Source of the DNA: a virus
Length of the DNA: 64,000 nt
IMG/VR virus record: IMGVR_UViG_3300045972_000071
Span: 1-64,000 of that record
Reading direction: 5' to 3' (one strand)
Part shown: positions 10,482-44,658 of the stretch, piece after piece
Position numbering within the stretch: position 1 is the stretch's first letter
How the letters are laid out: the number at the start of each line of letters is the position of its first letter
The notes under the pieces: model-generated
Databases searched by the model: none
What the model saw: the letters and a program-made list of their open reading frames with translations, nothing else
What the model was told of the DNA's origin: nothing
Position numbers and translations under genes: made by a program

Positions 10482-11345
10482 ATGCGAGAAAGAACCTTTG
10501 AAGAAATCCAAGAGATTCGTCAAGACGTGGCTTCACGTTATGCAGATGTCACGTTTCCAGATATAGTGCTTGAACCTGTGTGGTGGGGCAGACGCCCTGA
10601 GAATCGTGTCGATGAACACTATGCTATTGTTGACCAGAACACTAACAAAGTGTTCAACATCTGCACCGAGAAGTACAAACCCGTTTATCACGAACTTATC
10701 ATCCATAACGTGGAGCAAGCCGCTGTGGAAATGCCCCAGTTCGGTGTGCCCAAGATCAAAGTTGATATGATCGGTGATGGTGCAAAGATGCGAGTGAACG
10801 TCATGTTCCCCGAGGTTGACTACATGGTCAAATCCGGTGATATATTTCACCCAACTTCTGATATCAAAACATCATACGATCTGGGATGGAAGTATACTGT
10901 TGACTTCGGTGCGTATCGTCTGGTATGTTCTAACGGACTTAAAGTGGGTGAGGTATTTGAGTCATTCAAGAAACGTCACATGACAGGACTGGATCCAAAC
11001 ATTCTGTCGGAGACACTGAATGCTGGTATGCTTCGATTCGATGAACAGACCCAGCTTTGGCAGAAGTGGGCTGAGAAAGCAATTCCTCATGCAGACTATG
11101 AGACTATCTGGGAGGAACTCCCTTTCTCAAAACCTGAGCGTGAAAAGATTGAAGCAATCACCGGCGCTGGAAACAATCTGATTCTTGCCCAGGAGATCAA
11201 GAAAGATAACCAGATCACTCTGTGGGATATGTTTAATAACACCACACAATATGTTACACATAATATTAACAGTGTGCTGAGACGTGTGGAGATAGGTCCT
11301 GAGATAACCCGTGTATTTGAAAGAGCATTTCATTCCATAAAATAA
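10482..11345 (+). CDS. DUF932/DUF945-family protein
   Basis: KYKPVYHE...SYD...GAYRLVCSNGL...KRH...TLWDMFNNTTQYVTH. Confidence 0.8.
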   Translation: MRERTFEEIQEIRQDVASRYADVTFPDIVLEPVWWGRRPENRVDEHYAIVDQNTNKVFNICTEKYKPVYHELIIHNVEQAAVEMPQFGVPKIKVDMIGDGAKMRVNVMFPEVDYMVKSGDIFHPTSDIKTSYDLGWKYTVDFGAYRLVCSNGLKVGEVFESFKKRHMTGLDPNILSETLNAGMLRFDEQTQLWQKWAEKAIPHADYETIWEELPFSKPEREKIEAITGAGNNLILAQEIKKDNQITLWDMFNNTTQYVTHNINSVLRRVEIGPEITRVFERAFHSIK

Positions 11346-11406
11346 TTATGTTGACGATTATCCTTATTATGATTATAGTAAGGATAATCTGACATAAGGA
11401 GTTATT

Positions 11407-11523
11407 ATGGAACAATGTGAATGTTTGCGGTGCGGTCATAGTTGGTTACCCAGAGTAGAAAAACCCAAAGCGTGTCCTTGTTGTATGAGTTATAAATGGA
11501 ACGTACCAAGGAGGTCAAAATGA
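11407..11523 (+). CDS. 38-aa Zn-ribbon peptide translationally coupled to an HNH gene
   Basis: MEQCECLRCGHSWLPRVEKPKACPCC...; RBS TAAGGAG; ATGA overlap with the HNH start. Confidence 0.65.
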   Translation: MEQCECLRCGHSWLPRVEKPKACPCCMSYKWNVPRRSK

Positions 11524-11963
11524 GAACAGGAAGACCTAAAACTCATGGAATGACTGGTACCCCCATACATAATACATGGTTAGCAATGATTGATCGGTGT
11601 TTCGGAAAAGAGAAGTTTAACCCTTCTTATAAAAGAAGGGGCATAATTGTGTGTGAACGCTGGTTAAAATTTGAAAACTTCTTTGAAGATATGGGAGAAC
11701 GTCCATTTAAAAATGCACAAATAGAAAGAACCAATAATGATGGTAATTATGAACCAGGTAATTGTGAGTGGACCACCCAAAAACAAAATAGCCGAAATCG
11801 TATTAGTACAATAAGGGTTGAGTATAATGATAAAATAATGGCCCTATCTGAGGTCGCTGAAATTATAGGAATGAAACCCGGTACTCTATATGATAGACAC
11901 ATTAAACGTGGATGGTCATTACATGAGGCTATACATAAACCTCTACATAGGGTATTAGAATAG
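11520..11963 (+). CDS. HNH homing endonuclease
   Basis: HG...WxxMxxRC...RGIxVCERWLKFENFFEDMG...IERxNNDGNYEPGNCEW. Confidence 0.85.
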   Translation: MRTGRPKTHGMTGTPIHNTWLAMIDRCFGKEKFNPSYKRRGIIVCERWLKFENFFEDMGERPFKNAQIERTNNDGNYEPGNCEWTTQKQNSRNRISTIRVEYNDKIMALSEVAEIIGMKPGTLYDRHIKRGWSLHEAIHKPLHRVLE

Positions 11964-12007
11964 AGATTGGACCGGAGATAACCAAAGTCTTTGAACGTCA
12001 CGACTAA
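11957..12007 (+). pseudogene. Orphaned original 3' end of the DUF932 gene
   Basis: Reads RIEIGPEITKVFERHD* versus the current end RVEIGPEITRVFERAFHSIK*. Confidence 0.85.
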
Positions 12008-12016
12008 CTATCTGCC

Positions 12017-12070
12017 AGAGGGCATTATGAATGCATGAAACACTATGCAGACGTAATGCCCTCTTTTTAT
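12017..12070 (+). terminator. Intrinsic terminator
   Basis: agagggcatta...taatgccctct-tttt. Confidence 0.65.
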
Positions 12071-12199
12071 GCCAAGAATCTGATGTGGACGATCTGTGGC
12101 TAAAAATATTAGTAGGAGTGAAAATAATCGTTGCTGTCCTTATCTTACCATGAGATTCTATAATTACTAGAAGTTCAATTAAAAAGAGAAGGAGTTCAC

Positions 12200-13651
12200 A
12201 TGCAGTGGTCAGATCAACAAAACGCTATCTTTGATTGGTTCAAGGGGGGTTCTGGAAATCTTGTAGTAAGAGCCAGAGCGGGAACAGGCAAGACAACCAC
12301 GATAGTTCAAGCGATATCGTATGCACCAGAAAATTCTATTCTGCTTGGTGCATTCAACAAACGTATTGCTTCCGAACTCCAAACAAAACTCACTAATCCC
12401 AAAGCAGTTGCAAAGACGTTTCATGCACTGGGATACGGAATGATCTTAGGGAACTGGAAGGGTGCAGTTCTCGATCAGTACCGCTCAGACAGCATGGCAC
12501 GTGAACTTTTCCCAGATGTCCCGGATCCGATTATCACATCTATCAAGAAGCTAGCTTCCCTCGCTAAAAACATCTGCCCTTTCTTCTCCATAGAGAAACT
12601 AATTGATATCTGTTATGTACACGATATTGACGCCGACGAGCAAATGATTGATCTGGGGTGGAACATCTCCAAGATTGCTACTCATGCCGCAAAGCTACTC
12701 GACAAAGCCGCAGAACGCAATGGTACGTTTGACTTTGACGATATGCTTTATATCCCAATCAAGAACTCTTGGATACGCAAGCGTTATGATCTTGTCGTAA
12801 TTGACGAAGCCCAAGACATGAATGCTTCACAGCTTATCATGGCAAAGAAGTTGGGCAAAGCCCGCATTGTCGTTGTTGGTGACGACAAACAAGCGATATA
12901 TGCATTCCGAGGTGCTGATAGCAATTCGATTGACAGATTGAAGGGCGAGTTATCCGCTAAAGAACTTGGACTGACGATCACATATCGTTGCCCTAAGAAT
13001 GTCGTTCAGCACATCAAGTGGATTGTTCCTGACTTCATCGCCGCAGATGAAGCCCCTGATGGAGTCGTTCGATCACTTGCATACTCCGCAATGATTGCCG
13101 AAGCAGAACCTGGCGACTTCATTCTCAGCAGAATCAATGCGCCCTTAACCCGTACTTGCTTCAAACTGCTTGCACTGGACAAACGTGCTTGTGTTGAGGG
13201 GCGTGAAATAGGGCAGACACTCAAGAAGATTGTTAAAGGGCTGAAAGCAACCACTATTGAAGAGATGGTAGACAAGCTACAGACTTGGCATACAAATCAG
13301 ATTGAGCGTATCACTAAAACAGCGAGTCGATGCGCGGAGACCAAGATTGAGCATGTCAACGATCAAGTGGCTATGCTCAATGTCTTTGCTGAAAATGCTA
13401 CTACTGTTGACGACCTCTTAATCAAACTGGAGACAATGTTTCAGCACACTGACGGGGGAAAGCTGGATGTGATTGTCTGCTCTTCCGTACACAAAGCGAA
13501 GGGGTTGGAGCGCAACAGAGTTTACGGACTTTGTGACACTCTATACCCAGGGGGCAGTAAGAACTCCTCATGTGTTGAGGAACGTAATATTGAGTACGTC
13601 ATGGTAACACGTGCCAAGAGTGAGTTCATCTGCGTAACAGGGATTCACTAG
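12200..13651 (+). CDS. UvrD/Rep superfamily 1 helicase
   Basis: ARAGTGKTT, DEAQD, VGDDKQAIYAFRGA, TYRCP, SVHKAKGLE, YVMVTRAK. Confidence 0.92.
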   Translation: MQWSDQQNAIFDWFKGGSGNLVVRARAGTGKTTTIVQAISYAPENSILLGAFNKRIASELQTKLTNPKAVAKTFHALGYGMILGNWKGAVLDQYRSDSMARELFPDVPDPIITSIKKLASLAKNICPFFSIEKLIDICYVHDIDADEQMIDLGWNISKIATHAAKLLDKAAERNGTFDFDDMLYIPIKNSWIRKRYDLVVIDEAQDMNASQLIMAKKLGKARIVVVGDDKQAIYAFRGADSNSIDRLKGELSAKELGLTITYRCPKNVVQHIKWIVPDFIAADEAPDGVVRSLAYSAMIAEAEPGDFILSRINAPLTRTCFKLLALDKRACVEGREIGQTLKKIVKGLKATTIEEMVDKLQTWHTNQIERITKTASRCAETKIEHVNDQVAMLNVFAENATTVDDLLIKLETMFQHTDGGKLDVIVCSSVHKAKGLERNRVYGLCDTLYPGGSKNSSCVEERNIEYVMVTRAKSEFICVTGIH

Positions 13652-13848
13652 GCGGGAATAAATCTGCTGAGGGTGTCAATTAATGCTTGATGCCCTTAGC
13701 AGTCCATGCGATATTATAAACATGAAGTTCAATCTATTTACAAAGGAGATTCACAATGTCACAGAAAATGGAACAGTTGTTTAAGGTCATGGAGAGTATC
13801 GCACTGAGTCAGGTCATAATGCTTGACGAGAGTGTAAGATAGGAACAG

Positions 13849-14175
13849 ATGTACAAAATTGCAAGCACCAGAAAGCAGTTCTCGGAAGAATGTTGCCGCA
13901 GACTCACAGGAAGTGAAGCGGGCGAGTACATGGAGCGATTCGTCAACGTCATGTCACATGCAACGGAGGACAAAGACTTTGTTGAGTACATCGTACACCG
14001 CACCCATCGTACACTGAATCAGTCATTCATTGGGCTGATGCTCAAGGTTCTAGTCGAAGAAGCATCCTTGCACACTACGGGACGATTTGACGGCAGAAAC
14101 GAAGCGTCGGTCAAGACTTGCAAATCCATCGTTGAGAGAATGGATGGGGCAGATATGTATCTGCCATTCATATAA
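13849..14175 (+). CDS. Hypothetical protein
   Basis: HRTLNQ...DGRNEAS phage-type motif. Confidence 0.6.
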   Translation: MYKIASTRKQFSEECCRRLTGSEAGEYMERFVNVMSHATEDKDFVEYIVHRTHRTLNQSFIGLMLKVLVEEASLHTTGRFDGRNEASVKTCKSIVERMDGADMYLPFI

Positions 14176-14187
14176 AAGGAGACTACC

Positions 14188-14487
14188 GTGAAAGCGATCA
14201 AAACATATATACTACCTGCTACTGCTACATTGCCAAAAAGAATCAAAGCTGTTGGAAGTAAACGCTTAGGTCCAGTAATTATCTCATACGATCATCCCCA
14301 CTTCACTGATTTGTCCGATGATGAAATTCACGCATTCGCTGCAAGAGAGTTTGCCACATTACATAAATGGAACTGGCATTTCGTCAGCGGCTATCTGAAA
14401 ATGGATAAGTGTAGAGTGCATGTGTTCTTGCCGAATCGTATCACTACGCTACTTGAAATGGCAGGGGGGAAAACATGGGCACTATAA
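14188..14487 (+). CDS. Hypothetical protein
   Basis: RBS AAGGAG. Confidence 0.6.
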   Translation: MKAIKTYILPATATLPKRIKAVGSKRLGPVIISYDHPHFTDLSDDEIHAFAAREFATLHKWNWHFVSGYLKMDKCRVHVFLPNRITTLLEMAGGKTWAL

Positions 14488-14657
14488 TCGACTCTAAAAA
14501 GATGGCAAAGCGTGTATCAGCACGAAAATGGCAGGGGGACGATCAATATTCGTGGGCAGTCTTTATTGACGGTGCTCCATACATCTCAGGGCTTTCAAGA
14601 AGAGAAGTCCCCTTCTATAAACAGCAGGCGTTGAACCGCTTGATGAAGGGGGCATGA
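14475..14657 (+). CDS. Hypothetical protein
   Basis: Overlapping operonic ORF. Confidence 0.55.
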   Translation: MGTIIDSKKMAKRVSARKWQGDDQYSWAVFIDGAPYISGLSRREVPFYKQQALNRLMKGA

Positions 14658-14799
14658 TATGGACGGGGATACTTTCTGGGCAGTAATAATCATAATAATC
14701 ATCGTGTCCGTTATTTTTAACTAAAAGTGCTTGCACTGTGATTGATCCCAGCGTATATTAGTATACAGAAGTTCAATCACAGTACAGAGGAGAACAAGC

Positions 14800-15042: not shown

Positions 15043-15044
15043 TA

Positions 15045-15751: not shown

Positions 15752-15951
15752 GTATATCCATGAAGATGATAAAAGAAGTTTCTATGCGTCTGGAGCAGGA
15801 ACGCATTGCGAAAGATGTACTCCTGAAAGGATGGGAGAAGTATAATAAAAATGGTGGTAGTGATTCTTACGAACGCTGGAAAGAGAATCTTCTTGTCCAC
15901 TATATCATTGGATCTATGGAACGTGATAACTTCAAAGGATCAGGGATATGA
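15748..15951 (+). CDS. Hypothetical protein
   Basis: Overlapping operonic ORF. Confidence 0.55.
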   Translation: MSISMKMIKEVSMRLEQERIAKDVLLKGWEKYNKNGGSDSYERWKENLLVHYIIGSMERDNFKGSGI

Positions 15952-17321
15952 AACCTGTTTATACAATAACAATACATAACCCAGTGGAAGCGTCTTGCAC
16001 TGCGGTTCTTGCGGGGCTGATAAAGCCCTGCATATCATTCCCTACATCATTCTGGGTGCAAGGACCATTCAAGAAGGTTCGCAAAGAGTCCACAAAGTCA
16101 ATGCTCACTAAAGGTAAAGGAAGCATGTATTACTTCTGGGCTGGACTGCTTGACAGAGTTCTGGAGCATTGTGCCGAGAATGGTATTGAGGTAGAAGTTG
16201 TTGATAAAGCGTATGAAGAGTTTAATATCTATGAACCCGAACTACCAGGAATTACCTTCCGTCCAGATCAGGCGTCACTTATCAACTCATTTCTTGATAA
16301 ACCTAGGGGCATTCTCGAATCGTTCACAGGCAGTGGTAAGACTGTGCTTGGTTTTGGCTGTCTGTCTGCATTTCCGGACTATAGAGCGTTATGGTTGTGC
16401 CACACTAAAGGACTAATGCAACAAGCCTATGACGAAGCATGTAAGTTCGGATTCAAAAGTGTGGGGCGTGTCGGGGATGGGCATTCAGAATATACCAAGG
16501 ATATCACTATTGCCACGCGGCAGAGTTTTAAACGACTTGCCGATGAGTTTGGTCATGAGTATGACATAGTTGTGGTGGATGAAGTACACCATGTTGCTGA
16601 TTTAAAGTCAGAATATGCCTATGTACTTGCCCGAGTACCTGCCCCCATTCGATTAGGACTGTCTGCTACTCTTCACAAAGAGGGCACAGAAGCATGGTAC
16701 ACGTCAGTAGGACTACTAGGTCCGATACTCCAATCATTGTCGATCAATGACGGTGCTGAACTTGGCATCTTAGCCACACCGACTATCAGAATTTTACGTT
16801 GTCCTAAAGATCACGAAGTATCAGCCATGAAGATGTATTCCCATGTATATTCTGCTGGGGTTGTAAATAACCTTTACATGAATAACCTGATAGCCGTAAC
16901 TGCTAAGAAACACTCCGATGCCAATGAAACCGTACTGATAATGATTAATCAGATTGAGCATGGGGAGAACATACAAAGATTGCTTGACGCTTTGCATGTA
17001 AAGAACATCTTTATACGAGGAGCCACGAAATCAGAAGTACGGGATGATACAAAACATGCTCTGAATCGTCACGAAATCAATGTTGTTATATGTTCCTCAG
17101 TATGGACAGAGGGAATAAACATTCCTACTCTCCAAGTTGTTATCAACGCAGCTGGTGGCAAAGATGAAAAGGCTGTATTGCAGAAAGTAGGGCGTGGTCT
17201 GAGAAAGACCGCAGAGAAAGACTCCGTAATTATTTATGACACGTTCAATGTATCACATAGGTATCTGATTGAACACTTCGGGGAGCGTCTATGTATTTAC
17301 CTAGATAATAATTGGCTATAA
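15948..17321 (+). CDS. Superfamily 2 (UvsW-like) DExH helicase
   Basis: TGSGKT, DEVHH, GLSAT, EGINIP, QKVGRGLR. Confidence 0.92.
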   Translation: MKPVYTITIHNPVEASCTAVLAGLIKPCISFPTSFWVQGPFKKVRKESTKSMLTKGKGSMYYFWAGLLDRVLEHCAENGIEVEVVDKAYEEFNIYEPELPGITFRPDQASLINSFLDKPRGILESFTGSGKTVLGFGCLSAFPDYRALWLCHTKGLMQQAYDEACKFGFKSVGRVGDGHSEYTKDITIATRQSFKRLADEFGHEYDIVVVDEVHHVADLKSEYAYVLARVPAPIRLGLSATLHKEGTEAWYTSVGLLGPILQSLSINDGAELGILATPTIRILRCPKDHEVSAMKMYSHVYSAGVVNNLYMNNLIAVTAKKHSDANETVLIMINQIEHGENIQRLLDALHVKNIFIRGATKSEVRDDTKHALNRHEINVVICSSVWTEGINIPTLQVVINAAGGKDEKAVLQKVGRGLRKTAEKDSVIIYDTFNVSHRYLIEHFGERLCIYLDNNWL

Positions 17322-17388
17322 ATCTAACTATTGACTTCTTATAATTTTATGATAATATACACATTAGATTAAATCATAAGGAGTGATT

Positions 17389-18012
17389 ATGAAAATTAAA
17401 AGGCGAATGATTGGTAAACGATTTGGCAGATGGATAATAGATTCATTACATAATCTAGCCCCAGGTAAAAAGTGGAACTGTATATGTGATTGTGGTACAG
17501 AGAAATCCGTTTACGAATATTCTCTTAAAAATGGTAGTTCCCAATCTTGTGGGTGTCTAACAAGGGATAGATCCATTGAAACTCATTCAACACATAATGG
17601 AACTTATAAACCAGAATACAGGGTGTGGGCGGCAATGAAGTCAAGATGTAGTAATCCAAAAGATTTATCCTTTCATAATTATGGAGGTAGAGGGATCAAA
17701 GTGTGTGAGTCATGGTTATCTTTTGAAAATTTCTATACAGATATGGGTCCATGTCCTAAAGGGCTTGAACTTGACAGGATTAATAATGACGGCAATTATG
17801 AACCTGGTAATTGTGAGTGGGTTACTAAATCAGCTAACGACAGGAACCGCAGAAATACACTTATGCTAACCTTAAATGGGGTAACTAAAGCGATGAAAAC
17901 TTGGTCTGAGGAATATGGTATTCCCCATCACACTGTTAGGTACAGAATAAAACGAGGATGGGAACCAAATCTAGCACTCACCATAAAAGTAGGTGAAAAG
18001 TATGAAGCATAA
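17389..18012 (+). CDS. HNH homing endonuclease
   Basis: CICDCG...SCGC...WAAMKSRC...YGGRGIKVC...LDRINNDGNYEPGNCEW. Confidence 0.88.
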   Translation: MKIKRRMIGKRFGRWIIDSLHNLAPGKKWNCICDCGTEKSVYEYSLKNGSSQSCGCLTRDRSIETHSTHNGTYKPEYRVWAAMKSRCSNPKDLSFHNYGGRGIKVCESWLSFENFYTDMGPCPKGLELDRINNDGNYEPGNCEWVTKSANDRNRRNTLMLTLNGVTKAMKTWSEEYGIPHHTVRYRIKRGWEPNLALTIKVGEKYEA

Positions 18013-23074: not shown

Positions 23075-23467
23075 ATGAGACTAAATGTATGTAAGGAATT
23101 CACCTTTGCTGCCGCACACTCACTACCTGGTTATGATGGACCGTGTGCTAATCTACACGGACATGAATGGAAACTGGAAGTTGAAGTTTCCGGCGTAGTC
23201 AATGAAGATACCGGCATGGTGCTCGATTTTGTGAAACTGAAAAAGATAGTCAACCAAGAACTTGTAGATAAACTGGATCATAAACACTTGAATGATATCT
23301 TCGTTGTAATACCCACTGCTGAAATGATGGTGGGTAACTTTGCCGATATCATCAATCATGTATTTAACAATGAGAAAAAAGGGTTAGGTGTAAAGTTAGA
23401 GCGCCTTCGTCTATATGAAACACCAACGTCATTCTGTGAGTGGAAACGATCCAGTTGTTCATGCTAA
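23075..23467 (+). CDS. queD: 6-carboxy-5,6,7,8-tetrahydropterin synthase
   Basis: FAAAHSL...CANLHGHEW...GMVLDF...LDHKHLND...PTAE...LYETP. Confidence 0.95.
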   Translation: MRLNVCKEFTFAAAHSLPGYDGPCANLHGHEWKLEVEVSGVVNEDTGMVLDFVKLKKIVNQELVDKLDHKHLNDIFVVIPTAEMMVGNFADIINHVFNNEKKGLGVKLERLRLYETPTSFCEWKRSSCSC

Positions 23468-23483
23468 TATAAGGAGAGGTATA

Positions 23484-24137
23484 ATGCCTAGAATTTATTC
23501 AATTTTTCAGAGTGTAGAAGGGGAAGTAAACGCACGTGGTATCGGTGCAATGACTGTGTTCATTCGATTTGCGGGTTGTCACGCCACATGTACATTCTGT
23601 GATACAACGTATGCAAAGGATCCTGCAAGCGGGCGTGTAATGTCAGTAAGTGAAGTTATGGAAGAGGTATCTAAGTATAACTGTCCGAACGTCACTATCA
23701 CTGGCGGTGAACCTATGGAGCAGTATGACGAACTTTGTAACCTGCTTCATGCTCTGGATGCAAATCAGTATAATGTGTCCGTAGAAACTAACGGACTGCA
23801 TTCTTTCTGGCGCAGAAATGCACCGATGATACATGCAACCTTTGTTGTGGATATCAAGAATGAAGGATTTATGGCATTATCCCGTATTGTAAACATGGGG
23901 CTTACATCTTCTGACATACTCAAAATGGTAGTGGGCAGTGAAGCTGACTTTGCTGTGGCGTGTACACGAAAGAGAGAATTGCAAGAACGTGGTGTTAAAG
24001 CCAGATTCGCATTTTCTCCAGAGTTCGGGAAAGTAGATCCAGACAGGATTCTTTCTTGGATGAAGAAATACGATCAAAATGATGCTATCCTTAATTTTCA
24101 GGCCCACAAAGTGCTTAATTTGACAGAGAATAATTAA
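23484..24137 (+). CDS. queE: 7-carboxy-7-deazaguanine synthase (radical SAM)
   Basis: IFQSVEGE, FIRFAGCHATCTFCDT, ITGGEP, VETNG, QAHK. Confidence 0.93.
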   Translation: MPRIYSIFQSVEGEVNARGIGAMTVFIRFAGCHATCTFCDTTYAKDPASGRVMSVSEVMEEVSKYNCPNVTITGGEPMEQYDELCNLLHALDANQYNVSVETNGLHSFWRRNAPMIHATFVVDIKNEGFMALSRIVNMGLTSSDILKMVVGSEADFAVACTRKRELQERGVKARFAFSPEFGKVDPDRILSWMKKYDQNDAILNFQAHKVLNLTENN

Positions 24138-24196
24138 ATCTTGCATAAACTTCCTAAGTTATAATACTGTAATAATTATAACTTAGGAGGTTACTT

Positions 24197-24817
24197 ATGG
24201 GATGCAGTGTATTGGGTTGTACAAACCATGAATTTAGTACAGGGCATGGGGACAGAAAGAAAAGAACAGGTAAATGTAGAAAACATCACTATAATTTACC
24301 TAGTAGACACTTGACCAGTGATCCAAATATATATGTGATAGATGGTCCTATATGCAGGATAACGTGCCATAAAAAAGATAACTCTATCGCAGGTTATGCC
24401 ATAATAGATACAGAAGATATGGAAAAATGTATTCCTTATAAATGGGGAATAACTTCGGATGGGTATGTAGTAAACGGTAAAAATCAAATTCGCCTGCATC
24501 ATCTAATTATGAATCATATTCCAGATAAAAATCACCCTATAGATCATAAAAATAGAATAAAATTGGATTGCAGAAAAGAGAATATGGAATTATCCACATA
24601 TTCTAAAAATAATGTGAATAGGGATTTAAAAAACAATACTTCCGGTCATAAATGTGTTTATTGGAATAAACACGCTAAATCTTGGGATGTAAGAATAACT
24701 AGGAATAAGATATGCACTCAATTAGGGTACTACAAAACTCTTGAGAAAGCCATAGAAGTTAGGGATACTTTTTATATCCAGCTTCATAAGGTATTGAACT
24801 TAACTGAGACTAACTAG
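24197..24817 (+). CDS. HNH-AP2 homing endonuclease whose tail is the original QueE C-terminus
   Basis: LHHLIM...IDHKNRIKLDCRKENM, AP2-like SGHKCVYW; ends QLHKVLNLTETN. Confidence 0.85.
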   Translation: MGCSVLGCTNHEFSTGHGDRKKRTGKCRKHHYNLPSRHLTSDPNIYVIDGPICRITCHKKDNSIAGYAIIDTEDMEKCIPYKWGITSDGYVVNGKNQIRLHHLIMNHIPDKNHPIDHKNRIKLDCRKENMELSTYSKNNVNRDLKNNTSGHKCVYWNKHAKSWDVRITRNKICTQLGYYKTLEKAIEVRDTFYIQLHKVLNLTETN

Positions 24818-27108: not shown

Positions 27109-27124
27109 TGATTTATACCAATGT

Positions 27125-27205
27125 AAAGCGGCAAGAGAATTACATGGTGAATATGCTGTCCTAAACAAAATTCAGTTATTGAGGAGAAGTACATGCAAAA
27201 AATAA
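27125..27205 (+). pseudogene. 3' remnant of a deleted HNH-AP2 endonuclease gene
   Basis: Reads KAARELHGEYAVLNKIQLLRRS, matching the end of the 43761 HNH (AKELHGEFAVLNKIPLIRRR). Confidence 0.8.
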
Positions 27206-28721: not shown

Positions 28722-29526
28722 CGGGGGATTAGACAGCTTCATCATGTACAATATGGCAAAGTTTTATCATCCGGGCGATGAAATTATTGCTGTATACTTC
28801 GATCACGGCGCTTCCTACTGTAAGCGGGAGATAGAAAAACTCCCCGACTTTGTGCAAGTACGCAAGCTCGACTGGCTCGATGAAACCCACACTACTGTTA
28901 CACAACCAGGTAGACGTGAAGGTGCAATTATGATACCGGGACGTAATCTGGTGTTTGCTACCGCACTCGTTTGTCAAGAACTACCTGACGAACTTTGGAT
29001 TGGTGCTCTACACGGTGAGACACATGAGAAGGGTACGGACAAGAACTACACGTTCCTTGCTAAGATGAATGAAACCCTTAATTATGTTGTCGGTCCTTTC
29101 CGAAACAAGGTTCCTATGTACTGTAAGTTCCCCCTTGCTGATTTGAAGTTGGATAAACTCGATTCAGTTAAGTGGGCACTCACTCATGGAATTAGTCGTG
29201 AACAACTGATGCGTACTCGCTCCTGTCATGATGGTAGTACAGATAAGTGTGGTGCTTGTATTCAGTGTGTTAAACGATGGGCTGTGTTCGGGGCATGTGG
29301 ATTCACCGAACTGTATGATACACATCCACTTGATTCGGAATTCGGTAAGAAATTCGTATCTGACCTGGTCAAGTGTGAACTTGGGGAAGATGATTACTAC
29401 GGAGAAGAGACAAGAGCGGAGATAATGCCACATCTACATTTCATGGCTAACACATTCCCTTCTCTCTTCGAGGAAGAAACACTTGCTGATATCCGTAGAC
29501 TACAAAATCTGAGTAGGGATTACTAA
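28690..29526 (+). CDS. queC: QueC-like ATP-dependent enzyme (divergent 7-cyano-7-deazaguanine synthase family)
   Basis: YSGGLDS PP-loop, IPGRN, TRSC...CGACIQC; the usual YPDC motif reads GTDK. Confidence 0.85.
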   Translation: MTKKKIAILYSGGLDSFIMYNMAKFYHPGDEIIAVYFDHGASYCKREIEKLPDFVQVRKLDWLDETHTTVTQPGRREGAIMIPGRNLVFATALVCQELPDELWIGALHGETHEKGTDKNYTFLAKMNETLNYVVGPFRNKVPMYCKFPLADLKLDKLDSVKWALTHGISREQLMRTRSCHDGSTDKCGACIQCVKRWAVFGACGFTELYDTHPLDSEFGKKFVSDLVKCELGEDDYYGEETRAEIMPHLHFMANTFPSLFEEETLADIRRLQNLSRDY

Positions 29527-29573
29527 TGGATAGTTCAATCTTTCTCGACTCTTTATTATTCTTGACTTTATAG
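29526..29573 (+). pseudogene. Orphaned original 5' end of the TGT/DpdA-like gene
   Basis: ATG GAT AGT TCA ATC TTT CTC GAC TCT = MDSSIFLDS, coupled to the queC stop codon (TAATG). Confidence 0.88.
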
Positions 29574-29620: not shown

Positions 29621-30403
29621 ATGTCAGAATGTATTTGGGAAGGTTGCACAGAGGATGGTAATAATAAAGGATACTGTAAAAAACATTATGATAAATGGTA
29701 TTACAAATTGTGTAGAGAGAAAGCCGGACTAGCCCAATATACAAATCAAAATCCCATAAGAAAACGGACAAAAATAACCGGTACATGCAATGTGGAGGGA
29801 TGTGACTCACAAATTCACTGTAAGGGTGTTTGCTACAGGCATTATCTACATCTACGAAATCATGGAGAAATTAGGGAGAGAACTAGAATAACTCCTAATG
29901 ATTTTATCATTGACGGCGACACCTGTAAAATAGGTTGTTATAACATCTACTGTGATCTAGTAGGTTATGCTTTAATTGATGCCGAAGATGTAGATAGATG
30001 CAAACCACATAAATGGTATTTTGAAGTAGATGGTTATGTGAGTAGTACAACAGCAGGAAGTTTGCACCATTTTATATTAGGCACTAAACCTAGAAGTGGT
30101 GTATTTCCAGATCATAAAAACAGAGTATGCCATGATAATAGGAAAGATAATTTAAGAATTGCAACCACATCACAAAATGCCTGTAATTCTAAAATAAACT
30201 CCCGTAATAAAACAGGATATAAGGGTGTTTACTTTAACGGAAAAGAGTTTGTAGTTTATATATGTTCAAACGGTAAAAACAATCTTGTGGGTAAGTACAA
30301 TACGAAGGAGGAAGCGGCTATGATTTACAACCAGAAAGCCAAAGAGCTTCACGGAGAGTTTGCATTTCAAAATACTCTCAAAGAGAGTGTGGTCATTGGA
30401 TAG
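29621..30403 (+). CDS. HNH-AP2 homing endonuclease
   Basis: C/H Zn motifs, LHHFIL...DHKNRVCHDNRKDNLR, TGYKGV...EEAA..YN..AKELHGEFA. Confidence 0.88.
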   Translation: MSECIWEGCTEDGNNKGYCKKHYDKWYYKLCREKAGLAQYTNQNPIRKRTKITGTCNVEGCDSQIHCKGVCYRHYLHLRNHGEIRERTRITPNDFIIDGDTCKIGCYNIYCDLVGYALIDAEDVDRCKPHKWYFEVDGYVSSTTAGSLHHFILGTKPRSGVFPDHKNRVCHDNRKDNLRIATTSQNACNSKINSRNKTGYKGVYFNGKEFVVYICSNGKNNLVGKYNTKEEAAMIYNQKAKELHGEFAFQNTLKESVVIG

Positions 30404-31262
30404 TTCAATATTCCTCGATAGTGGTGCTTTCTCCGCAATGACATCTGGACAGACCCTAGATGTGTATGCCTACATTGATTATGTCAATGAGCATAAGGAG
30501 TTCTTTGATCTGTATGCTAACCTTGACGTAATAGGTTCTGCTGAAGGTACATGGAAGAATCAAAGGATAATGGAGAAAGCGGGACTTAATCCATTACCTG
30601 TCTATCACATCAATGAAGATCCTAAGTTTCTTGCGATGGCAATGGAGTATGATTACTTTGCTGTTGGGGGAATGGCAAGATCGAGTTCCGCTTCATTGCA
30701 GTTCCAAGTAGATGAAATATTCTCTATCATCTGCCCGAAGAGCAACGACTATTTTCCTACTCATAAAATACATGGGTTCGGAACTACTAAACCAAGTATC
30801 ATGGTCAGCTACCCCTGGTACTCTGTTGACTCTTCTTCATGGGTTAAATATGGTCTGTACGGTATTGTGCTGATACCCCGATTCTTTCACGGTAAGCCTA
30901 CATACAATAAGCCACCTATGACTGTTGTTATGTCGAACAGATCAAAAGCAATCGGAGATCAACTCCACTTTGCAAACATTTCAGCAATGGAAAAGGAAGC
31001 TATCCTTAACTACTTTGCTGAGAAAGGTATCTCTATAGGAGAATCTTACATCGTCAATGTTGAAGCAGGGCACGAACTGCTGGACAATGAAGTCTGGATA
31101 AACAAAGAGAAGACGAAAGTGGAACAGATTTGTGAGTACGGTCTGATAAATAATCATGTAGCCCGTGACCATGCAAACTTGCTTTACTTTCTTGACCTTG
31201 AGAAGTTTCAGCAGAAGTGGCCATGGCAGTGGAAAAAGAAATCAGGGAGATTAGATATATGA
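30396..31262 (+). CDS. dpdA: TGT-fold DNA 7-deazaguanine transglycosylase (DpdA-like)
   Basis: FLDSGAF, LDVIG, PVYH, AVGG, KIHGFG, SVDSSSW; lies in the que cluster; TTG start inferred. Confidence 0.8.
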   Translation: MDSSIFLDSGAFSAMTSGQTLDVYAYIDYVNEHKEFFDLYANLDVIGSAEGTWKNQRIMEKAGLNPLPVYHINEDPKFLAMAMEYDYFAVGGMARSSSASLQFQVDEIFSIICPKSNDYFPTHKIHGFGTTKPSIMVSYPWYSVDSSSWVKYGLYGIVLIPRFFHGKPTYNKPPMTVVMSNRSKAIGDQLHFANISAMEKEAILNYFAEKGISIGESYIVNVEAGHELLDNEVWINKEKTKVEQICEYGLINNHVARDHANLLYFLDLEKFQQKWPWQWKKKSGRLDI

Positions 31263-37676: not shown

Positions 37677-37685
37677 GGAGAAGGT

Positions 37686-38870: not shown

Positions 38871-38938
38871 TTTATTAAAAGGTAGAATAAAGATGTGCTA
38901 TTATCATTATGTAAGAGATTGAATTGAAAGGAGAAATT

Positions 38939-39478: not shown

Positions 39479-39612
39479 GGTATTACTTGCTATTTTCTTG
39501 GCGCTCATTCTGGCATACTGCATAGGGCGTATGTTTGGCATGGGCTTTGGTAAGTCAATCACAACGATGTCGGCTAGCCTAAGAGGCACTACGACAAAAG
39601 GAGAGAAGAAAC

Positions 39613-40725
39613 ATGAAGCCCAGTGAACGCAGGAAACAGATGAAGAATGACATGGCGGACCGTCTGCAAGAATCGTACAACAGCAAAGATTCTTCCGGTA
39701 AGTTCAAAAGTATATTCCTGAAAGACAAGATCGGTAACGTCCAGAAATGGAAAGCGTCCGAAGATGAACACTTCCTGAACATCATCCCATTCATTGCCGG
39801 TAACAACATGCCTATCGTTGACGGTAAGAAACTCGCCGCTGGTAAAGTTGCTCACTGTCTTGATGTGTGGGTACACGGTAAAGTCGGCATCAACGAGGAC
39901 AGCTACATCTGTCTTGCTCGCTCTTACGGTGGTAAGTGTCCTATCTGCGAGGAGCAAGCCGAACTCCGCAAACAGGATGATTATGATGATAAGTATGTCA
40001 AGTCATTGAATCCTTCTCGCCGTGTTGTCTACAACATCGAGTGCCTTGATTCTGACAAAGAAGCAAAGAAAGGTTTGCAGTATTTTGAAGTATCACACTA
40101 CCTCTTTGAAAAAGAACTGACTGAAATCGCTAAGAAACCCCGCGGTGGTGGATTCATTACTTATCAGGATCCAGATGATGGCAAGATCGTTTTCTTCCGC
40201 AAGAGTGGCAGTGGGCCAACAAACACAAAATACTCAGCGTTCAAGTTCGAGGACAGAACTGAAATTGTCTCCGATGATATTCTTGATGCCGCTCTTGTTC
40301 TTGACGAATGCATTCACATTCCTTCTTATGAAGAAGTGAAAAACGCATTCTACGGTACAGAATCAGAAGTTGACCCTGAGGCTCTGGAAGAGCGCAAGAC
40401 CGAATCTGAAAGTACACGTAGACAATCAGCACCGCCTAAGTTCAAATGCCCTGGCGATCGTCCTACTGACTTCGGTGATCTGGAAGCATGTGATGATTGT
40501 CCAGATGTTGACGCTTGTGAGAAAGAATTGGAAGCTAAGGAAGAAGCCGACCTGGCTGCTAAAACTGCTCAAGAAGAGAAAGCAGAAGTGAAAGAAACCC
40601 CCTCGGCTACACGGCGTGTACGTTCTTCTGCATCTGAGGAAGCGTCTGTTGAGAAAGAGACCGTAGCTGAATCGACTACCGATCAGACTGAAGGTCGCAG
40701 ACTTCGCCGTAGACCAGGCGCTTAG
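39613..40725 (+). CDS. gp32-like single-stranded DNA-binding protein
   Basis: IIPF, H, CL...CPICE Zn site, DPDDG, TKY; acidic C-terminal region. Confidence 0.75.
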   Translation: MKPSERRKQMKNDMADRLQESYNSKDSSGKFKSIFLKDKIGNVQKWKASEDEHFLNIIPFIAGNNMPIVDGKKLAAGKVAHCLDVWVHGKVGINEDSYICLARSYGGKCPICEEQAELRKQDDYDDKYVKSLNPSRRVVYNIECLDSDKEAKKGLQYFEVSHYLFEKELTEIAKKPRGGGFITYQDPDDGKIVFFRKSGSGPTNTKYSAFKFEDRTEIVSDDILDAALVLDECIHIPSYEEVKNAFYGTESEVDPEALEERKTESESTRRQSAPPKFKCPGDRPTDFGDLEACDDCPDVDACEKELEAKEEADLAAKTAQEEKAEVKETPSATRRVRSSASEEASVEKETVAESTTDQTEGRRLRRRPGA

Positions 40726-40727
40726 TC

Positions 40728-41795
40728 ATGGCGGGCATAGTTCGCAGAAGTGTAGGCAACTCCGTAGCATCGGATATCAAAGAAAATAAATCCGATGAAT
40801 CAACAACACCCAGTGGGGCTAACGTCCCGACAAACTTTGCAACAACTGTATCCACTGGTTCTACACTTCTCGATCTTGCTATATCAGGAGGCCGTCTCGA
40901 AAGGGGCGGCATTCCTGGTGGCATTATCGTAGAGATATTTGGACCATCCGGTGCAGGAAAATCAGCATTACTCTCAGAACTATCAGCATCTACTCAGTCC
41001 CGTGGTGGCAAAGTCAAATTCTTGGATCCAGAGGCACGTCTTGACAAAGCGTACACTGAAATTTATGGTGTAAATATCAAAGAGGACTTTGAATATGCAC
41101 GTCCCGATACTGTATCCGGTATGTTTGTTGACGAAATATGGAACTGGGATACACCGAATAAAGATGTAATTAACATGATTGCCGCTGACTCACTCGCCGC
41201 ATTATCTACAAATATGGAGATGGACAATGACGACGGAGATAAAATGGGAATGCGGAGAGCGAAAGAGTTTTCTGAAGGACTGCGTAAAACTTGCCGTCTT
41301 ATCGCTCAAAACAACTGGCTTATTGCCATGTCTAACCAAATCAGAATGGGAGAAGGTGGGAAAGTCACGACACCCGGAGGACATGGCGTTCCATTTTATG
41401 CATCGTTGCGAATGCAGATTAAGCCCGGATACCCTACATCAAAGATTGTCAAGAAGAAGAAGATGGGCAAAACGGAGGTTTCTAAGGTACTGGGAATCTT
41501 ATCTGAGGTTACTATCGTTAAATCATCAGTCGATGATCCTTGGAGAACAGCACCTCTATCTATCATCTTTGGATATGGCATCGACACCATCCGTGACGAG
41601 TTGCAGTATTATAAGGATCTCACAGGGGAGACCACTTATAATTGCTTTGATAAAACGTATGCCGCAATGGACCCAGCTATCGCTTTCATCGAAGATAATG
41701 GATTCAAACGGAAACTCCAAGATCGAACAATCGGTCTTTGGAACGAAGTGCAAGACAAATTCAAAACTAACCGCAGAGTAAAGGACAGGAGATAA
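40728..41795 (+). CDS. recA: RecA/UvsX recombinase
   Basis: STGSTLLDLAISGG, EIFGPSGAGKS, DPE, DSLAAL, NQIR, TPGG...FYASLR. Confidence 0.92.
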   Translation: MAGIVRRSVGNSVASDIKENKSDESTTPSGANVPTNFATTVSTGSTLLDLAISGGRLERGGIPGGIIVEIFGPSGAGKSALLSELSASTQSRGGKVKFLDPEARLDKAYTEIYGVNIKEDFEYARPDTVSGMFVDEIWNWDTPNKDVINMIAADSLAALSTNMEMDNDDGDKMGMRRAKEFSEGLRKTCRLIAQNNWLIAMSNQIRMGEGGKVTTPGGHGVPFYASLRMQIKPGYPTSKIVKKKKMGKTEVSKVLGILSEVTIVKSSVDDPWRTAPLSIIFGYGIDTIRDELQYYKDLTGETTYNCFDKTYAAMDPAIAFIEDNGFKRKLQDRTIGLWNEVQDKFKTNRRVKDRR

Positions 41796-41796
41796 C

Positions 41797-42084
41797 ATGC
41801 AAGTTACGCTTATCAAAGTAGAAGGTATTTTGTTCGTTGGACAGACCGAAGAGGGTAGACCCTCACTCATTAAAAACCCCAGAATGGTATTTGCAAATCA
41901 TGAAACCGGAGAAGTCAGTGTGGCGAAGTGTATTGCTAATCCCAAAGAAATGATGGTACCTACTGCACCGACTTTCGTTTATACCAGCAATGATGCAGAA
42001 TTTGATAAGTTCTACCTTGATGCTATAGTAGAAGAAGGTGTAATTATAACCCCTCCTGTGAAGAACATCAAAATAGTTAAGTAA
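41797..42084 (+). CDS. Hypothetical protein
   Basis: Operonic ORF with RBS. Confidence 0.6.
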   Translation: MQVTLIKVEGILFVGQTEEGRPSLIKNPRMVFANHETGEVSVAKCIANPKEMMVPTAPTFVYTSNDAEFDKFYLDAIVEEGVIITPPVKNIKIVK

Positions 42085-42106
42085 AACATATGCATCATTG
42101 ACATTA

Positions 42107-42137
42107 AAGCACGGAGAACTCACTCTCCGTGCTTTTA
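42107..42137 (+). terminator. Intrinsic terminator
   Basis: aaagcacggaga-actcac-tctccgtgcttt-t. Confidence 0.75.
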
Positions 42138-42152
42138 AAGTGAGGTTTTATA

Positions 42153-43037
42153 ATGCTGAATGACGCAACAATCAACAAAGTGATTATCCTTGATTCAAAT
42201 GCCGTATGTCACAAAGCGAAACACTCAATGGAGAGTTTATCCTATGAGGAAAAGAAAGTAGGTATTATCTTCGGGTACTTTGTTCAGATGTTGAAGTTGG
42301 CAAAGGATCACAAATCGAATCAGTTTGCACATACTTGGGACAGTAAAAGTTCCAATCGACTAAAATTGTTTCCTGCTTATAAAGAGAAGCGCAGGATGGG
42401 AGTAGATAAGACCGAAGAAGAAATAGAGTACGATGGATTAGCCTATGAGCAGTTTGATATGATACGTGATGAAATCATTCCAGCCATGGGATTTAAAAAT
42501 AACTTTCACTATCCTGGTTTTGAGGGTGATGATCTGATTGCAAGCATCATCGACAACAGCGGGGAAGAGCAAGAACTTGTTATGGTGACCGGTGATGAAG
42601 ATATGTTTCAGTGTCTTTGTGATGGTGTTGTAATGCAAAGGAAGAAGGGTGTTTATACTCATAAAGACTTTATGAAAGAGTATGGAATACCTGCTTACAA
42701 GTGGGCAGAAGTCAAAGCAATAGCTGGTTGTTCTACTGATGAAGTGCCAGGTATTCGTGGTGTCGGTGAAAAGACAGCCATTAAGTACTTGCTGAACATG
42801 TTGAAACCTACTACCAAAGCGTTTACTGATATAACTTCACAAGCAGGAAAAGAAATCATTGCCCGTAATCGCAAGTTGGTCACTTTGCCATTTAAAAACA
42901 CGCCTGATTTAATCTTGCAGAAAGACACCAAACTATCACTGGATGCTTTCTGTGATGTCTGCAACAAATACTCATTCCAGCACCTTCTTAAAAAGGAGAA
43001 TCTTTCACAATGGAAACGATACCTAAACTTAAAGTAG
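42153..43037 (+). CDS. 5'-3' exonuclease / flap endonuclease
   Basis: ILDSN, YKEKR, EGDDLI, TGDEDMFQ, D.VPGIRGVGEKTA. Confidence 0.92.
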   Translation: MLNDATINKVIILDSNAVCHKAKHSMESLSYEEKKVGIIFGYFVQMLKLAKDHKSNQFAHTWDSKSSNRLKLFPAYKEKRRMGVDKTEEEIEYDGLAYEQFDMIRDEIIPAMGFKNNFHYPGFEGDDLIASIIDNSGEEQELVMVTGDEDMFQCLCDGVVMQRKKGVYTHKDFMKEYGIPAYKWAEVKAIAGCSTDEVPGIRGVGEKTAIKYLLNMLKPTTKAFTDITSQAGKEIIARNRKLVTLPFKNTPDLILQKDTKLSLDAFCDVCNKYSFQHLLKKENLSQWKRYLNLK

Positions 43038-43462
43038 CCGCAGTGCCTAGTTTTAGAGATATATGTGGATGCGGACATCCTTCATCAGATCACATGACGA
43101 AAACATCCTCTGATTATGTGAACACAGGTAAATGCACTACTGGCACATGCGATTGTGATGGATTTCACCGTCTTGTAGAACAGCCCGCAGTTGTGTCCAC
43201 GATCACTGTTAATCCTAAATCCGCAAAGATTATTAAATTGATGTTTGATGAACTGGAGAAGGCTGACAAGAAGTATCCTCACGATAAAATGTCACGTAAG
43301 GAACTGAAATGCTCCCTCGCCACCGTTAAATGTGAATTTGAAGAATTGAAGCGGGAAACAAAGCGCAAAAAGAGGGATATGAATCTTATGCAGAAAGAGG
43401 CTATCCAACTACTTGCAATGGCATTCAAATTCAATCGTGATGTTATCTTTGAGAGGGACTAA
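43010..43462 (+). CDS. Hypothetical protein (Cys/His N-terminus, MazG-like C-terminus)
   Basis: CGCGH..H..C..C.C; EFEEL...KEAIQLLAM. Confidence 0.55.
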   Translation: METIPKLKVAAVPSFRDICGCGHPSSDHMTKTSSDYVNTGKCTTGTCDCDGFHRLVEQPAVVSTITVNPKSAKIIKLMFDELEKADKKYPHDKMSRKELKCSLATVKCEFEELKRETKRKKRDMNLMQKEAIQLLAMAFKFNRDVIFERD

Positions 43463-43677
43463 TGGCGTTTCCACTGGGAAATAAAATGGGTGGCGGTGGT
43501 TATCATGCATACATCACCATACCTTTACTGAAAGAAAGAATGCAGGCCTTGAGAATATCCAGAGAAACAATGGAAGCTAGATCAGGTGTGTGCATGACTA
43601 CTATCCGCAGAGCAAGAGCAGGGTTTCGTATCAGAAAGCATTTAGCCGATTGTATTGTGGAGGTTCTCCGTGGATGA
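43462..43677 (+). CDS. XRE-type HTH protein
   Basis: LKERMQALRISRETMEARSGVCMTTIRRA. Confidence 0.65.
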   Translation: MAFPLGNKMGGGGYHAYITIPLLKERMQALRISRETMEARSGVCMTTIRRARAGFRIRKHLADCIVEVLRG

Positions 43678-43760
43678 AACACTGGTATACACAATGATGT
43701 CTGCTTGACAGTGTATGATTTATGATCTATCATGTACTTACTAAATAACTAGGAGGTACT

Positions 43761-44396
43761 ATGAGAGGTAAGAAAGTATGTAAAATTGAAGGATGTGGTG
43801 CTTACTGTTTTGGTAATGGTCTGTGTGGCAAGCATTATAGACAAATGCGGGATTACGGTAAAATATTTGCACGAACTATAAAAGACCCAAATGATTTTAT
43901 AATAGATGGTTCTATATGCAGAATAGGATGTTATGATTTGAAACATAATTTAAAAGGATATATAATAATAGATGCAGAGGACAGTGAAAAATGTAAACCG
44001 TTCAAATGGAATATGGGAACCGGTGGTCCTGTAGCTAAAGGAATAGTTTTGACTAATTTGATAATGAATAATGACCCAACTACAAAATTGGTAGTGGATC
44101 ACAAAGATAGGAATACTTGGGATAATAGGAAAGACAACCTCAGAATATGTACAGTTAAGGAAAACGCCAGAAATAGGGTTCATCCTAAAAATAAATCAGG
44201 TTACCGTGGAGTATCTTGGAGTAATAAAGAAAATAAATGGATTGCCACGATTCAACACGATAGTAAGCAAATGAGATTAGGATGTTTTACCGATATAATC
44301 GAAGCGGCAAAAATGTATAATATGATGGCAAAGGAGCTACACGGTGAGTTTGCGGTTCTGAATAAAATTCCACTTATTAGGAGAAGAAATGGTTGA
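43761..44396 (+). CDS. HNH-AP2 homing endonuclease
   Basis: VDHKDRNTWDNRKDNLR, SGYRGV, LGCF..IIEAAKMYN..AKELHGEFA. Confidence 0.88.
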   Translation: MRGKKVCKIEGCGAYCFGNGLCGKHYRQMRDYGKIFARTIKDPNDFIIDGSICRIGCYDLKHNLKGYIIIDAEDSEKCKPFKWNMGTGGPVAKGIVLTNLIMNNDPTTKLVVDHKDRNTWDNRKDNLRICTVKENARNRVHPKNKSGYRGVSWSNKENKWIATIQHDSKQMRLGCFTDIIEAAKMYNMMAKELHGEFAVLNKIPLIRRRNG

Positions 44397-44658
44397 CACC
44401 TATATGTTAATGACGCCGGAAGATACTTATGATATTACCCTTATATCCACTATAGAAGTCCTCTTGCAAAAGCTACGTGCAAGACAGAAAGACAAGAAAC
44501 GTCTGTACCGTCTTGAGCAGGTAAACAGCGCACTTGTGACATTTGAAAATATGTATGAGGGGTGCATTCCAGAAGAATATTCTCATAAGGCACAAGCATT
44601 CGATGATATAGTAAATTCAGCATTGAGAGACTTGCAAATCATTCGAGGTGATAAGTGA
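44389..44658 (+). CDS. Hypothetical protein
   Basis: Operonic ORF. Confidence 0.55.
   Translation: MVDTYMLMTPEDTYDITLISTIEVLLQKLRARQKDKKRLYRLEQVNSALVTFENMYEGCIPEEYSHKAQAFDDIVNSALRDLQIIRGDK

Follow-up and report, generated by a model that had tools for sequence, protein, structure and literature searches.

This account concerns the HNH endonuclease genes of an uncultured phage of ∼88 kb and the duplicated gene ends that accompany them. The DNA analyzed, hereafter the window, comprises positions 1 to 64,000 of the IMG/VR record IMGVR_UViG_3300045972_000071 and is the first 64 kb of a complete virus record of 87,617 bp. The span under study includes replication genes and a 7-deazaguanine DNA-modification cluster (QueD, QueE, FolE, QueC, and a DpdA-like transglycosylase), and the window holds five HNH genes, HNH1 to HNH5, all on the + strand. 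Two families are represented: HNH1 and HNH2 are of the phrog_3377/374 type, and HNH3, HNH4, and HNH5 are of the Pfam HNH_3/phrog_99 type. All five proteins match HNH families of PHROG (E values from 3e-27 to 4e-64), Pfam HNH_3 scores above its cut-off in HNH3, HNH4, and HNH5, and the DH..N motifs align; the products carry a beta-beta-alpha-metal HNH nuclease domain.

At three of these genes, one end of the neighboring gene is present twice, once on each side of the nuclease gene, as nearly the same peptide spelled with different codons. The copy that completes the host gene is called here the working end, and the copy beyond the nuclease gene the relic. The DUF932 gene ends in RVEIGPEITRVFERAFHSIK and a stop codon, its last 21 codons (11283-11345) being the working 3' terminus. 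Part of this terminus, RVEIGPEITRVFER (11283-11324), returns after HNH1 as RIEIGPEITKVFER (11957-11998), and in the codon alignment 13 of 42 nucleotides differ and 12 of 14 amino acids are identical. The second gene is queE: its end, QAHKVLNLTENN plus stop (24099-24137), is matched by QLHKVLNLTETN plus stop (24779-24817), with 14 differences over 39 nucleotides and 11 of 13 residues retained. Here the relic is read in frame as the last 13 codons of HNH3 (24779-24817) and provides the HNH3 stop codon. The usual AP2 tail of such proteins, KELHGEFAVLN, is replaced in HNH3 from "LH" on, and "LH" is common to the queE relic, QLHKVLNL.

At the third gene, which is dpdA-like, the arrangement is mirrored because it is the start that is duplicated: (M)DSSIFLDS (29526-29552) lies before HNH4 and (TTG)DSSIFLDS (30396-30422) after it, with eight of eight residues identical and 5 of 24 nucleotides changed. 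The ATG of the relic overlaps the queC stop codon (TAATG), as expected of a resident start. The working gene begins TTG-DSSIFLDSGAFS, and the HNH4 stop codon falls within its codons 2-3.

These three duplications had been claimed in a sequence-only reading of the window, and three-frame translation with codon alignment bears them out. That reading also placed two of the insertions in conserved motifs, which agrees with the homologues: QxHK occurs within the last 34 residues of 12 of 15 QueE proteins (within the last 16 in 11 of the 15), and DSG follows directly after the start in 35 of 38 DpdA proteins. Both nuclease families are involved, as it had stated, the phrog_3377/374 type through HNH1 and the HNH_3/phrog_99 type through HNH3 and HNH4. 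Its word "intragenic" has to be given up; relative to the working gene, the nuclease genes are free-standing, after its stop codon or before its start.

Table 1. Features of the duplicated-terminus loci, followed by the other HNH genes and remnants of the window
Feature	Coordinates	Strand	Description
DUF932 gene	10482-11345	+	287 amino acids; Pfam DUF932, E 3.8e-12
HNH1 leader	11351-11523	+	promoter-like site 11351-11379, Shine-Dalgarno, and 38-codon zinc-ribbon open reading frame 11407-11523 overlapping the HNH1 start
HNH1	11496-11963	+	free-standing, 155 amino acids; phrog_3377, E 3e-42; absent at this site in the related viral contig G001
DUF932 3'-terminus relic	11957-12007	+	RIEIGPEITKVFERHD plus stop; no start codon, not in the HNH1 frame, overlapping the stop codon of HNH1
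queE	23415-24137	+	240 amino acids; Radical_SAM and phrog_2076, QueE-like; working 3' terminus is the last 13 codons
HNH3	24197-24817	+	206 amino acids; HNH_3, E 2e-6; phrog_99
dpdA 5'-end relic	29526-29573	+	MDSSIFLDSLLFLTL plus stop; ATG and 8 matching codons, then 6 unrelated codons and stop
HNH4	29621-30403	+	260 amino acids; HNH_3 and phrog_99; own promoter-like site and AGGAGG directly upstream
Working dpdA-like gene	30396-31262	+	288 amino acids if the start is TTG 30396 (aligned with the relic ATG); phrog_887, E 2e-42
HNH2	17383-18012	+	free-standing, between helicase and primase genes; phrog_374, E 4e-64; no flanking duplication
HNH5	43761-44396	+	211 amino acids; HNH_3 and weak AP2 match; intergenic; no flanking duplication
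Decayed sixth HNH-AP2 remnant	27122-27205	+	contains KAARELHGEYAVLNKIQLLRR; aligns with the C-termini of HNH4, HNH5, and the HNH protein of record L013

Each nuclease gene is a separate open reading frame (ORF) that lies outside any intron or intein, carries expression signals of its own, and is set off from the host gene by stop codons; the host ORFs stop in frame before the HNH genes, at normal protein lengths. The spacers before the HNH genes measure 59-150 nucleotides and contain a TTGAC-type hexamer pair and AGGAGG. A consensus promoter scan confirms the site for HNH1 (TTGACG-17-TATAGT, a consensus match only) and for HNH2, and such matches are common, with 71 found against 51 expected. 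The sequence-only reading had seen no intron or intein, and the searches concur. In the whole window no Rfam family of any kind attains its gathering score; with the threshold relaxed to E≤10, the only matches within 10000-45000 are five weak ones to snoRNA or microRNA families, and introns are not among them. Pfam detects no Hint or intein domain in the HNH proteins. The intron-family scan and the spacer lengths thus speak against a group I intron, with a ribozyme core and exons to be joined; against an intein speak the host ORFs, which stop before the HNH genes, and the missing Hint domain of the HNH proteins. The helicase of G001 provides the positive contrast: this orthologue (L004:5766-7742, - strand) of the window helicase gene at 15948-17321 has 658 amino acids instead of 457, and its Hint and Intein_splicing matches at residues 212-414 mark an intein that the window's gene is without.

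The way in which the copies differ is informative. When the three window pairs are pooled, 31 of 35 residues are identical although 32 of 105 bases differ, and 19 codons are synonymous variants. Substitutions placed at random left at most 23 residues identical, and the observed identity was reached in none of 50,000 trials. The same picture extends to six pairs, the three of the window and three from relatives, in which the peptide is kept while 17-38% of the bases differ, mostly at third codon positions. Simulated pair by pair, four pairs had an identity that none of 20,000 trials attained; P was 0.00035 for the dpdA pair of the window and 0.017 for the primase pair of G001. Peptides kept despite such base differences imply that each copy evolved within a working gene, in a lineage of its own. 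Judged by their codons, the two ends are alleles that diverged under selection, and the outer copy is no decayed local duplicate, having been orphaned too recently for decay.

The layout is not peculiar to this phage. The relative G001 is a 37-kb viral contig whose polymerase is 71% identical to that of the window phage; scanning metagenomes with a DpdA alignment yielded 46 loci, record L013 among them, and a scan of viral contigs with a DUF932 alignment added four more phage records holding five further HNH loci. G001 is empty at the DUF932, queE, and dpdA sites and has normal termini there: its QueE ends in QLHKVCELDEAN and stop, its DpdA starts MESKLMVDSGAHS, and its DUF932 protein ends in ITKAFEKI and stop. 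It does have an HNH gene of the HNH1/2 family after its primase gene, between TEDEVFELKRDLFIK plus stop and TEDEVWELKRDLFHE plus stop. In L013 a gene of the HNH3-5 family sits at the start of a sliding-clamp gene, between two copies of the first 27 codons of the latter. G004, whose DpdA is 68.5% identical to that of the window, carries at the same dpdA start an HNH gene with a product 47% identical to HNH4, between MNHSIFLDSGAYSTF(L, stop) and MNKSIFLDSGAYSSW, with a 15-codon duplication. The duplicated-terminus layout is thus present in four independent records, namely the window, G001, L013, and G004, and at three window and three relative loci an alternative end, adjacent to the nuclease gene, completes the host gene, and the displaced end lies beyond the nuclease gene. 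In all six cases, the HNH reading frame ends 5-39 nucleotides inside the downstream copy.

Is such a duplication a property of HNH genes, or would any ORF show it? In a flank-similarity scan of 113 non-overlapping ORFs of the whole genome, the three HNH loci rank 2nd, 4th, and 7th, with scores of 66, 54, and 41 against a genome median of 27 and a 90th percentile of 36. Over seven records, a score of at least 41 is reached at 6 of 13 HNH loci and at 15 of 558 non-HNH ORFs taken from the same 48 sequences (Fisher P=1.7e-6), so that the duplications are commoner at HNH genes than at other ORFs, as the sequence-only reading needed. At the 99th percentile of the controls, the counts become 5 of 13 and 6 of 558. 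The L013 locus scores 106. The HNH gene of record L015 was dropped by the ORF selection and, scored separately, gives 28. The top control scores come from a repeat region at 5.8-6.8 kb of the window and, in some loci, from paralogous small genes on both sides of dpdA. A fourth duplication that had been thought possible near 43670, at HNH5, did not hold: with 300-450 nucleotides searched on each side in all frame pairs, the best score was 30, within background. HNH2 was a further candidate and was rejected, the same flank scan yielding 26, again background. Likewise rejected was a borderline match (score 31) at an HNH gene of G003, which is out of frame and lies within a small zinc-ribbon ORF.

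A different kind of evidence is offered by two related records, L015 and L014, which are 98% identical over more than 9 kb. One HNH gene, between folE and a radical-SAM gene, is present in L015 only; together with the empty sites of G001, this demonstrates presence and absence of HNH genes at the same site among relatives. Beside the L015-only gene, identity falls to 84% over 626 nucleotides on the left and to 70-80% over ∼1.8 kb on the right, which indicates that foreign flanks come in with this HNH family.

How, then, did the layout arise? The loci have an anatomy that includes no splicing element, their copies diverge as alleles do, the layout recurs, and flanks are replaced beside a related HNH gene; we read all this as the outcome of homing, in which free-standing HNH genes came in with a foreign gene end and the resident end stayed on as a relic. 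We give this reading a probability of roughly 0.7. In the mechanism proposed, the HNH genes, each equipped with promoter-like and ribosome-binding sites, would arrive by homing-associated gene conversion, and the adjacent end of a foreign allele of the neighboring gene would be co-imported with them. DUF932 and queE would thereby receive an imported 3' end and dpdA an imported 5' end, each completing its gene. From near the break point outward, the resident end would escape replacement and persist beyond the nuclease gene as an untranslated or hitch-hiking relic. This would be the consequence of homology on one side of the break only: the other junction would be illegitimate, and the resident end would be stranded beyond the insert. 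In the L015/L014 pair, two-sided homology gave a clean swap.

Several observations fit one-sided repair. The gene upstream of dpdA varies, being queC in the window, HAD-like in G004, and glycosyltransferase-like in G001; the region 3' of DUF932 is unlike that in G001 and four other relatives; and the dpdA relic has the TAATG overlap with queC. To these can be added a contig of sequencing run X1, which joins DUF932 position 11153 to 11961, 4 nucleotides from the relic start, at a depth of 4.3 against 13; it hints at an HNH-free allele ending with the relic sequence. The AP2 tail of HNH3, lost exactly at the shared "LH", may be a further fit. The working DUF932 3' terminus is probably the imported one. 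As for the nuclease, we infer that its target in naive genomes is the relic-type sequence, that the working end, being spelled differently, is resistant, and that the gene of the nuclease and the gene end move on as one unit. The diverged flanks in L015/L014 give indirect support to the idea that such a nuclease cuts the empty allele and is copied in by repair.

Other explanations have to be weighed against this one. The repeats could stem from a local duplication made at insertion, by target-site duplication or slippage, and followed by divergence in place, so that the outer copy would be a decaying duplicate. Direct repeats flanking an insert are indeed a classic insertion mark, and the G001 primase pair, the least diverged, differs at only 8 of 48 nucleotides. 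An untranslated copy, however, should change regardless of the code, and the pooled residues and bases reported above, with no simulation reaching the observed identity, contradict this; moreover, HNH homing endonucleases are not known to make target-site duplications. A local origin of the copies is therefore very improbable. Splicing, or translational bypassing, would account for the layout differently, by joining the gene body to the distal copy through introns or inteins that escaped recognition. Homing endonucleases at conserved motifs usually ride in such elements, and G001 does harbor its helicase intein. Yet neither gathering scores nor a threshold of E≤10 bring up an intron family, the spacers are short (59-150 nucleotides), the HNH proteins are without a Hint domain, and the working copies end in in-frame stop codons at normal protein lengths; a complete second terminus would also be needless if splicing occurred. 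We consider this explanation still less credible than a local duplication.

The rival that deserves most attention reverses the roles of the two copies: the resident genes would be intact, and the nuclease gene would have landed just outside them, dragging along a scrap of the gene end of its previous host, so that the relic is the import. In its favor, peptide comparison with relatives does not identify the resident copy, and the donor could already have had the same layout. It has difficulty with the native TAATG overlap between queC and the dpdA relic, with the X1 contig that attaches a relic-like end to the DUF932 body, and with L015 and L014, where divergence falls on the very genes that neighbor the HNH gene. 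We regard it as unlikely, and the import of the working end remains the preferred reading. There is finally the suspicion that the similarity is accidental, or that two strains were mis-assembled, since the repeats are short (8-14 codons) and the genome is metagenomic. Against it stand flank scores at or above the 95th to 99th percentile of the 558 control ORFs, a 14-kb contig that spans the HNH1 and HNH2 loci, and the recurrence of the layout in four independent records. In addition, identical small contigs of run X2, from a second study, cover both HNH3 junctions, which argues against mis-assembly. Chance or artifact is thus the least plausible explanation of all.

The import of foreign gene ends has its own weak points, and they can be gathered here. 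A close HNH-free relative of this phage was not found in the searches made, and the resident copy is not identified by DNA identity: named phages gave no match to 20 kb in megablast, tblastn gave a best identity of 31% for QueE and a single distant match for HNH4, and scans of viral contigs with QueE only, as well as an exact 36-nucleotide scan for the DUF932 relic, gave no match. Among 5.8 billion proteins, the closest relative of HNH3 has an identity of 44%. The resident and the foreign copy are not told apart by peptide comparison with 15 QueE, 38 DpdA, and 41 DUF932 homologues; the DUF932 homologues, of 241-303 amino acids, have varied natural tails, and both window tails lie inside that range. 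G001, which supplies the empty sites, has host proteins only 41-58% identical to those of the window. It also has an HU-like gene downstream of queE, as the window does, so that one-sided homology is not evident at this locus. The working dpdA gene requires a rare TTG start. The X1 joint consists of one contig, whose 37-letter side was placed at 80% likeness; 130 bases before the duplicated stretch are unexplained in it, and because X1 is the probable source sample, the contig is not independent of the assembly. On the statistical side, the boundaries of the pairs were set by peptide similarity, which inflates the synonymous signal, and the flank-score threshold of 41 was chosen after the data were seen. 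Finally, duplication is absent at two of the five HNH genes of the window and at 7 of 13 HNH loci overall; it is not obligatory for these elements.

The sequence-only reading had proposed a recurrent third strategy of homing, next to introns or inteins and free-standing genes. The architecture and its recurrence stand, since three related records show it, one of them at the same dpdA site; the newness does not, because the strategy is already in print for eukaryotes, in yeast WHO elements and in mORFs of fungal mitochondria. Its proposal that the recoded end accompanies the element and serves as an immunity allele would be a prediction for these loci. The phage HNH version differs from these in nuclease family, in host, in the length replaced, and in affecting gene starts too.

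WHO elements of the yeasts Torulaspora and Lachancea, as described, replace the 3' end of the aldolase gene FBA1 without RNA or protein splicing, and have been called a third category of homing element (PMC7282813; Osborne et al. 2026 preprint). According to the 2026 preprint of Osborne et al., this route is unique to WHO elements and, compared with inteins and homing introns, "considerably more rare". According to these descriptions, the likeness with the phage loci is considerable: an endonuclease gene lies beside an essential or conserved gene, the end of the host gene is swapped for an allelic variant, and the target and the replacement end differ. The differences are also clear. The WHO proteins are described as LAGLIDADG/zinc-finger nucleases of the eukaryotic nucleus that replace half a gene, always on the 3' side, whereas the proteins here are phage HNH proteins, the duplicated piece measures only 8-27 codons, and replacement affects 5' as well as 3' ends. 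WHO nucleases are reported to cleave in an allele-specific manner; for the phage elements this is a prediction.

The mitochondrial precedents are closer in layout. Gene hybrids with mORFs are described for atp6 of Allomyces, for atp6, atp9, cox2, and nad3 of Glomus, for atp9 of Rhizopus, and for cox2 of Mortierella (PMC3630166), and C-terminal duplications of cob and atp6 beside endonuclease ORFs for Endoconidiophora (PMC6279837). The order there is foreign C-terminus, endonuclease ORF, native C-terminus, with copies similar as peptides and diverged as DNA (PMC3630166), and one of the ORFs described continues in phase into the native end, just like HNH3. In those accounts, the nucleases are LAGLIDADG or GIY-YIG proteins of organelles, the native copy is known by its near-identity to sister species, and no 5'-end case is found in the descriptions of PMC3630166 and PMC6279837. 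The phage elements operate in the manner of these systems; being HNH proteins, however, and not LAGLIDADG or GIY-YIG ones, their nucleases do not belong to the protein families of WHO/HO or of mitochondrial mORFs.

Among phages, the free-standing endonucleases of T4 type (Seg and Mob, of "intronless homing") are described as spreading by break repair with co-conversion of the flanks, and repair with one-sided homology as giving illegitimate junctions at microhomology (PMC2988022). They resemble the present elements in being HNH or GIY-YIG genes located between genes, and differ in that the in-gene modes listed are introns, inteins, and gene splitting (Aeh1 nrdA, T4 genes 39/60), not a spare terminus; that account does not mention duplication (PMC2988022). 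In ICP1 phages, tracts of divergence between close relatives are bordered by nuclease genes, HNH-AP2 genes among them (Barth et al. 2023, PMC10448857). The L015/L014 pair has this edge pattern too and is an instance of the co-conversion seen in T4-type homing and in ICP1; duplicated host-gene termini, present here, were not found mentioned in the ICP1 account (PMC10448857). More generally, a limited search of the open-access literature (including PMC10448857, PMC12724721, PMC2988022, PMC8351571, and PMC2248197) found no description of duplicated host-gene termini beside phage homing endonucleases.

An analogy of function only can be drawn from engineering: synthetic homing drives of the "recoded rescue" type, based on Cas9, cut an essential gene and carry a recoded remainder of it that restores function and resists cutting.

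The surroundings of these loci hold other observations worth recording. A perfect 10-bp inverted repeat (AAGTTATAAT and ATTATAACTT, at 24155-24185) follows the stop codon of queE and precedes the HNH3 ribosome-binding site; it could be a hairpin or an operator. Contig joints 23170>23406/23597 are also present in the sequencing runs, as is a joint 11721>17771, a cross-match between the paralogues HNH1 and HNH2. The zinc-ribbon ORF (CxxC...CPxC) in the HNH1 leader has a homologous small ORF, 52% identical over 33 residues, before the related HNH gene of G003 (L067, reverse strand), and HNH1-type genes may travel as a two-gene cassette or with a split N-terminal DNA-binding domain. Directly after the DUF932 relic comes a UvrD-like helicase gene (12200-13651), which never adjoins DUF932 in five related records, within 4 kb on either side; it may have arrived with or beside the HNH1 insertion. 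The orphan HNH-AP2 tail at 27122-27205 lies between a methyltransferase gene and a myo-inositol-1-phosphate-synthase-like gene, overlapping the start of the latter at its end, and is, by its alignment, a decayed sixth nuclease insertion.

In L015, the segment 5240-9400 is 70-84% identical to L014 3481-5825 across folE, the radical-SAM gene, and a queC-like gene, and contains ∼1 kb of additional small ORFs (8331-9385). The QueE homologue of these two records (L014 1120-2751 and L015 2879-4510) is an ORF of 543 amino acids, roughly double the ordinary length, which points to fusion with a further domain. Elsewhere in the window, in a region of small ORFs, a 61-nucleotide direct repeat occurs three times (5866-5926, 6399-6459, and 6756-6816), at spacings of 533 and 357 nucleotides; the outer copies are 64-72% identical to the middle one.

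What do these loci mean for phage biology? Splice-free homing by means of a spare gene end would extend beyond the nuclei of yeasts and the mitochondria of fungi. In annotation, it accounts for orphan short peptide repeats and unusual start codons beside HNH genes, and flags gene ends that are possibly foreign. Each pair of working end and relic is a concrete substrate for defining the target sites and the immunity of uncharacterized HNH enzymes, and nuclease genes become linked to allele replacement in a 7-deazaguanine DNA-modification cluster. In the 5' form, the start codon of the host gene lies within the last codons of the nuclease gene.

A broader view can be put forward tentatively, as one that is somewhat more doubtful than probable. 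These elements may be a widespread phage counterpart of the "third category" represented by WHO in yeast, in which a nuclease and a recoded end home into conserved motifs at either end of a gene, be it essential or auxiliary, and protect their carrier because the new end is left uncut. The 5' form would put translation of the host gene directly behind the nuclease gene, and repeated rounds of such homing may drive the turnover and arms-race diversification of phage gene termini.

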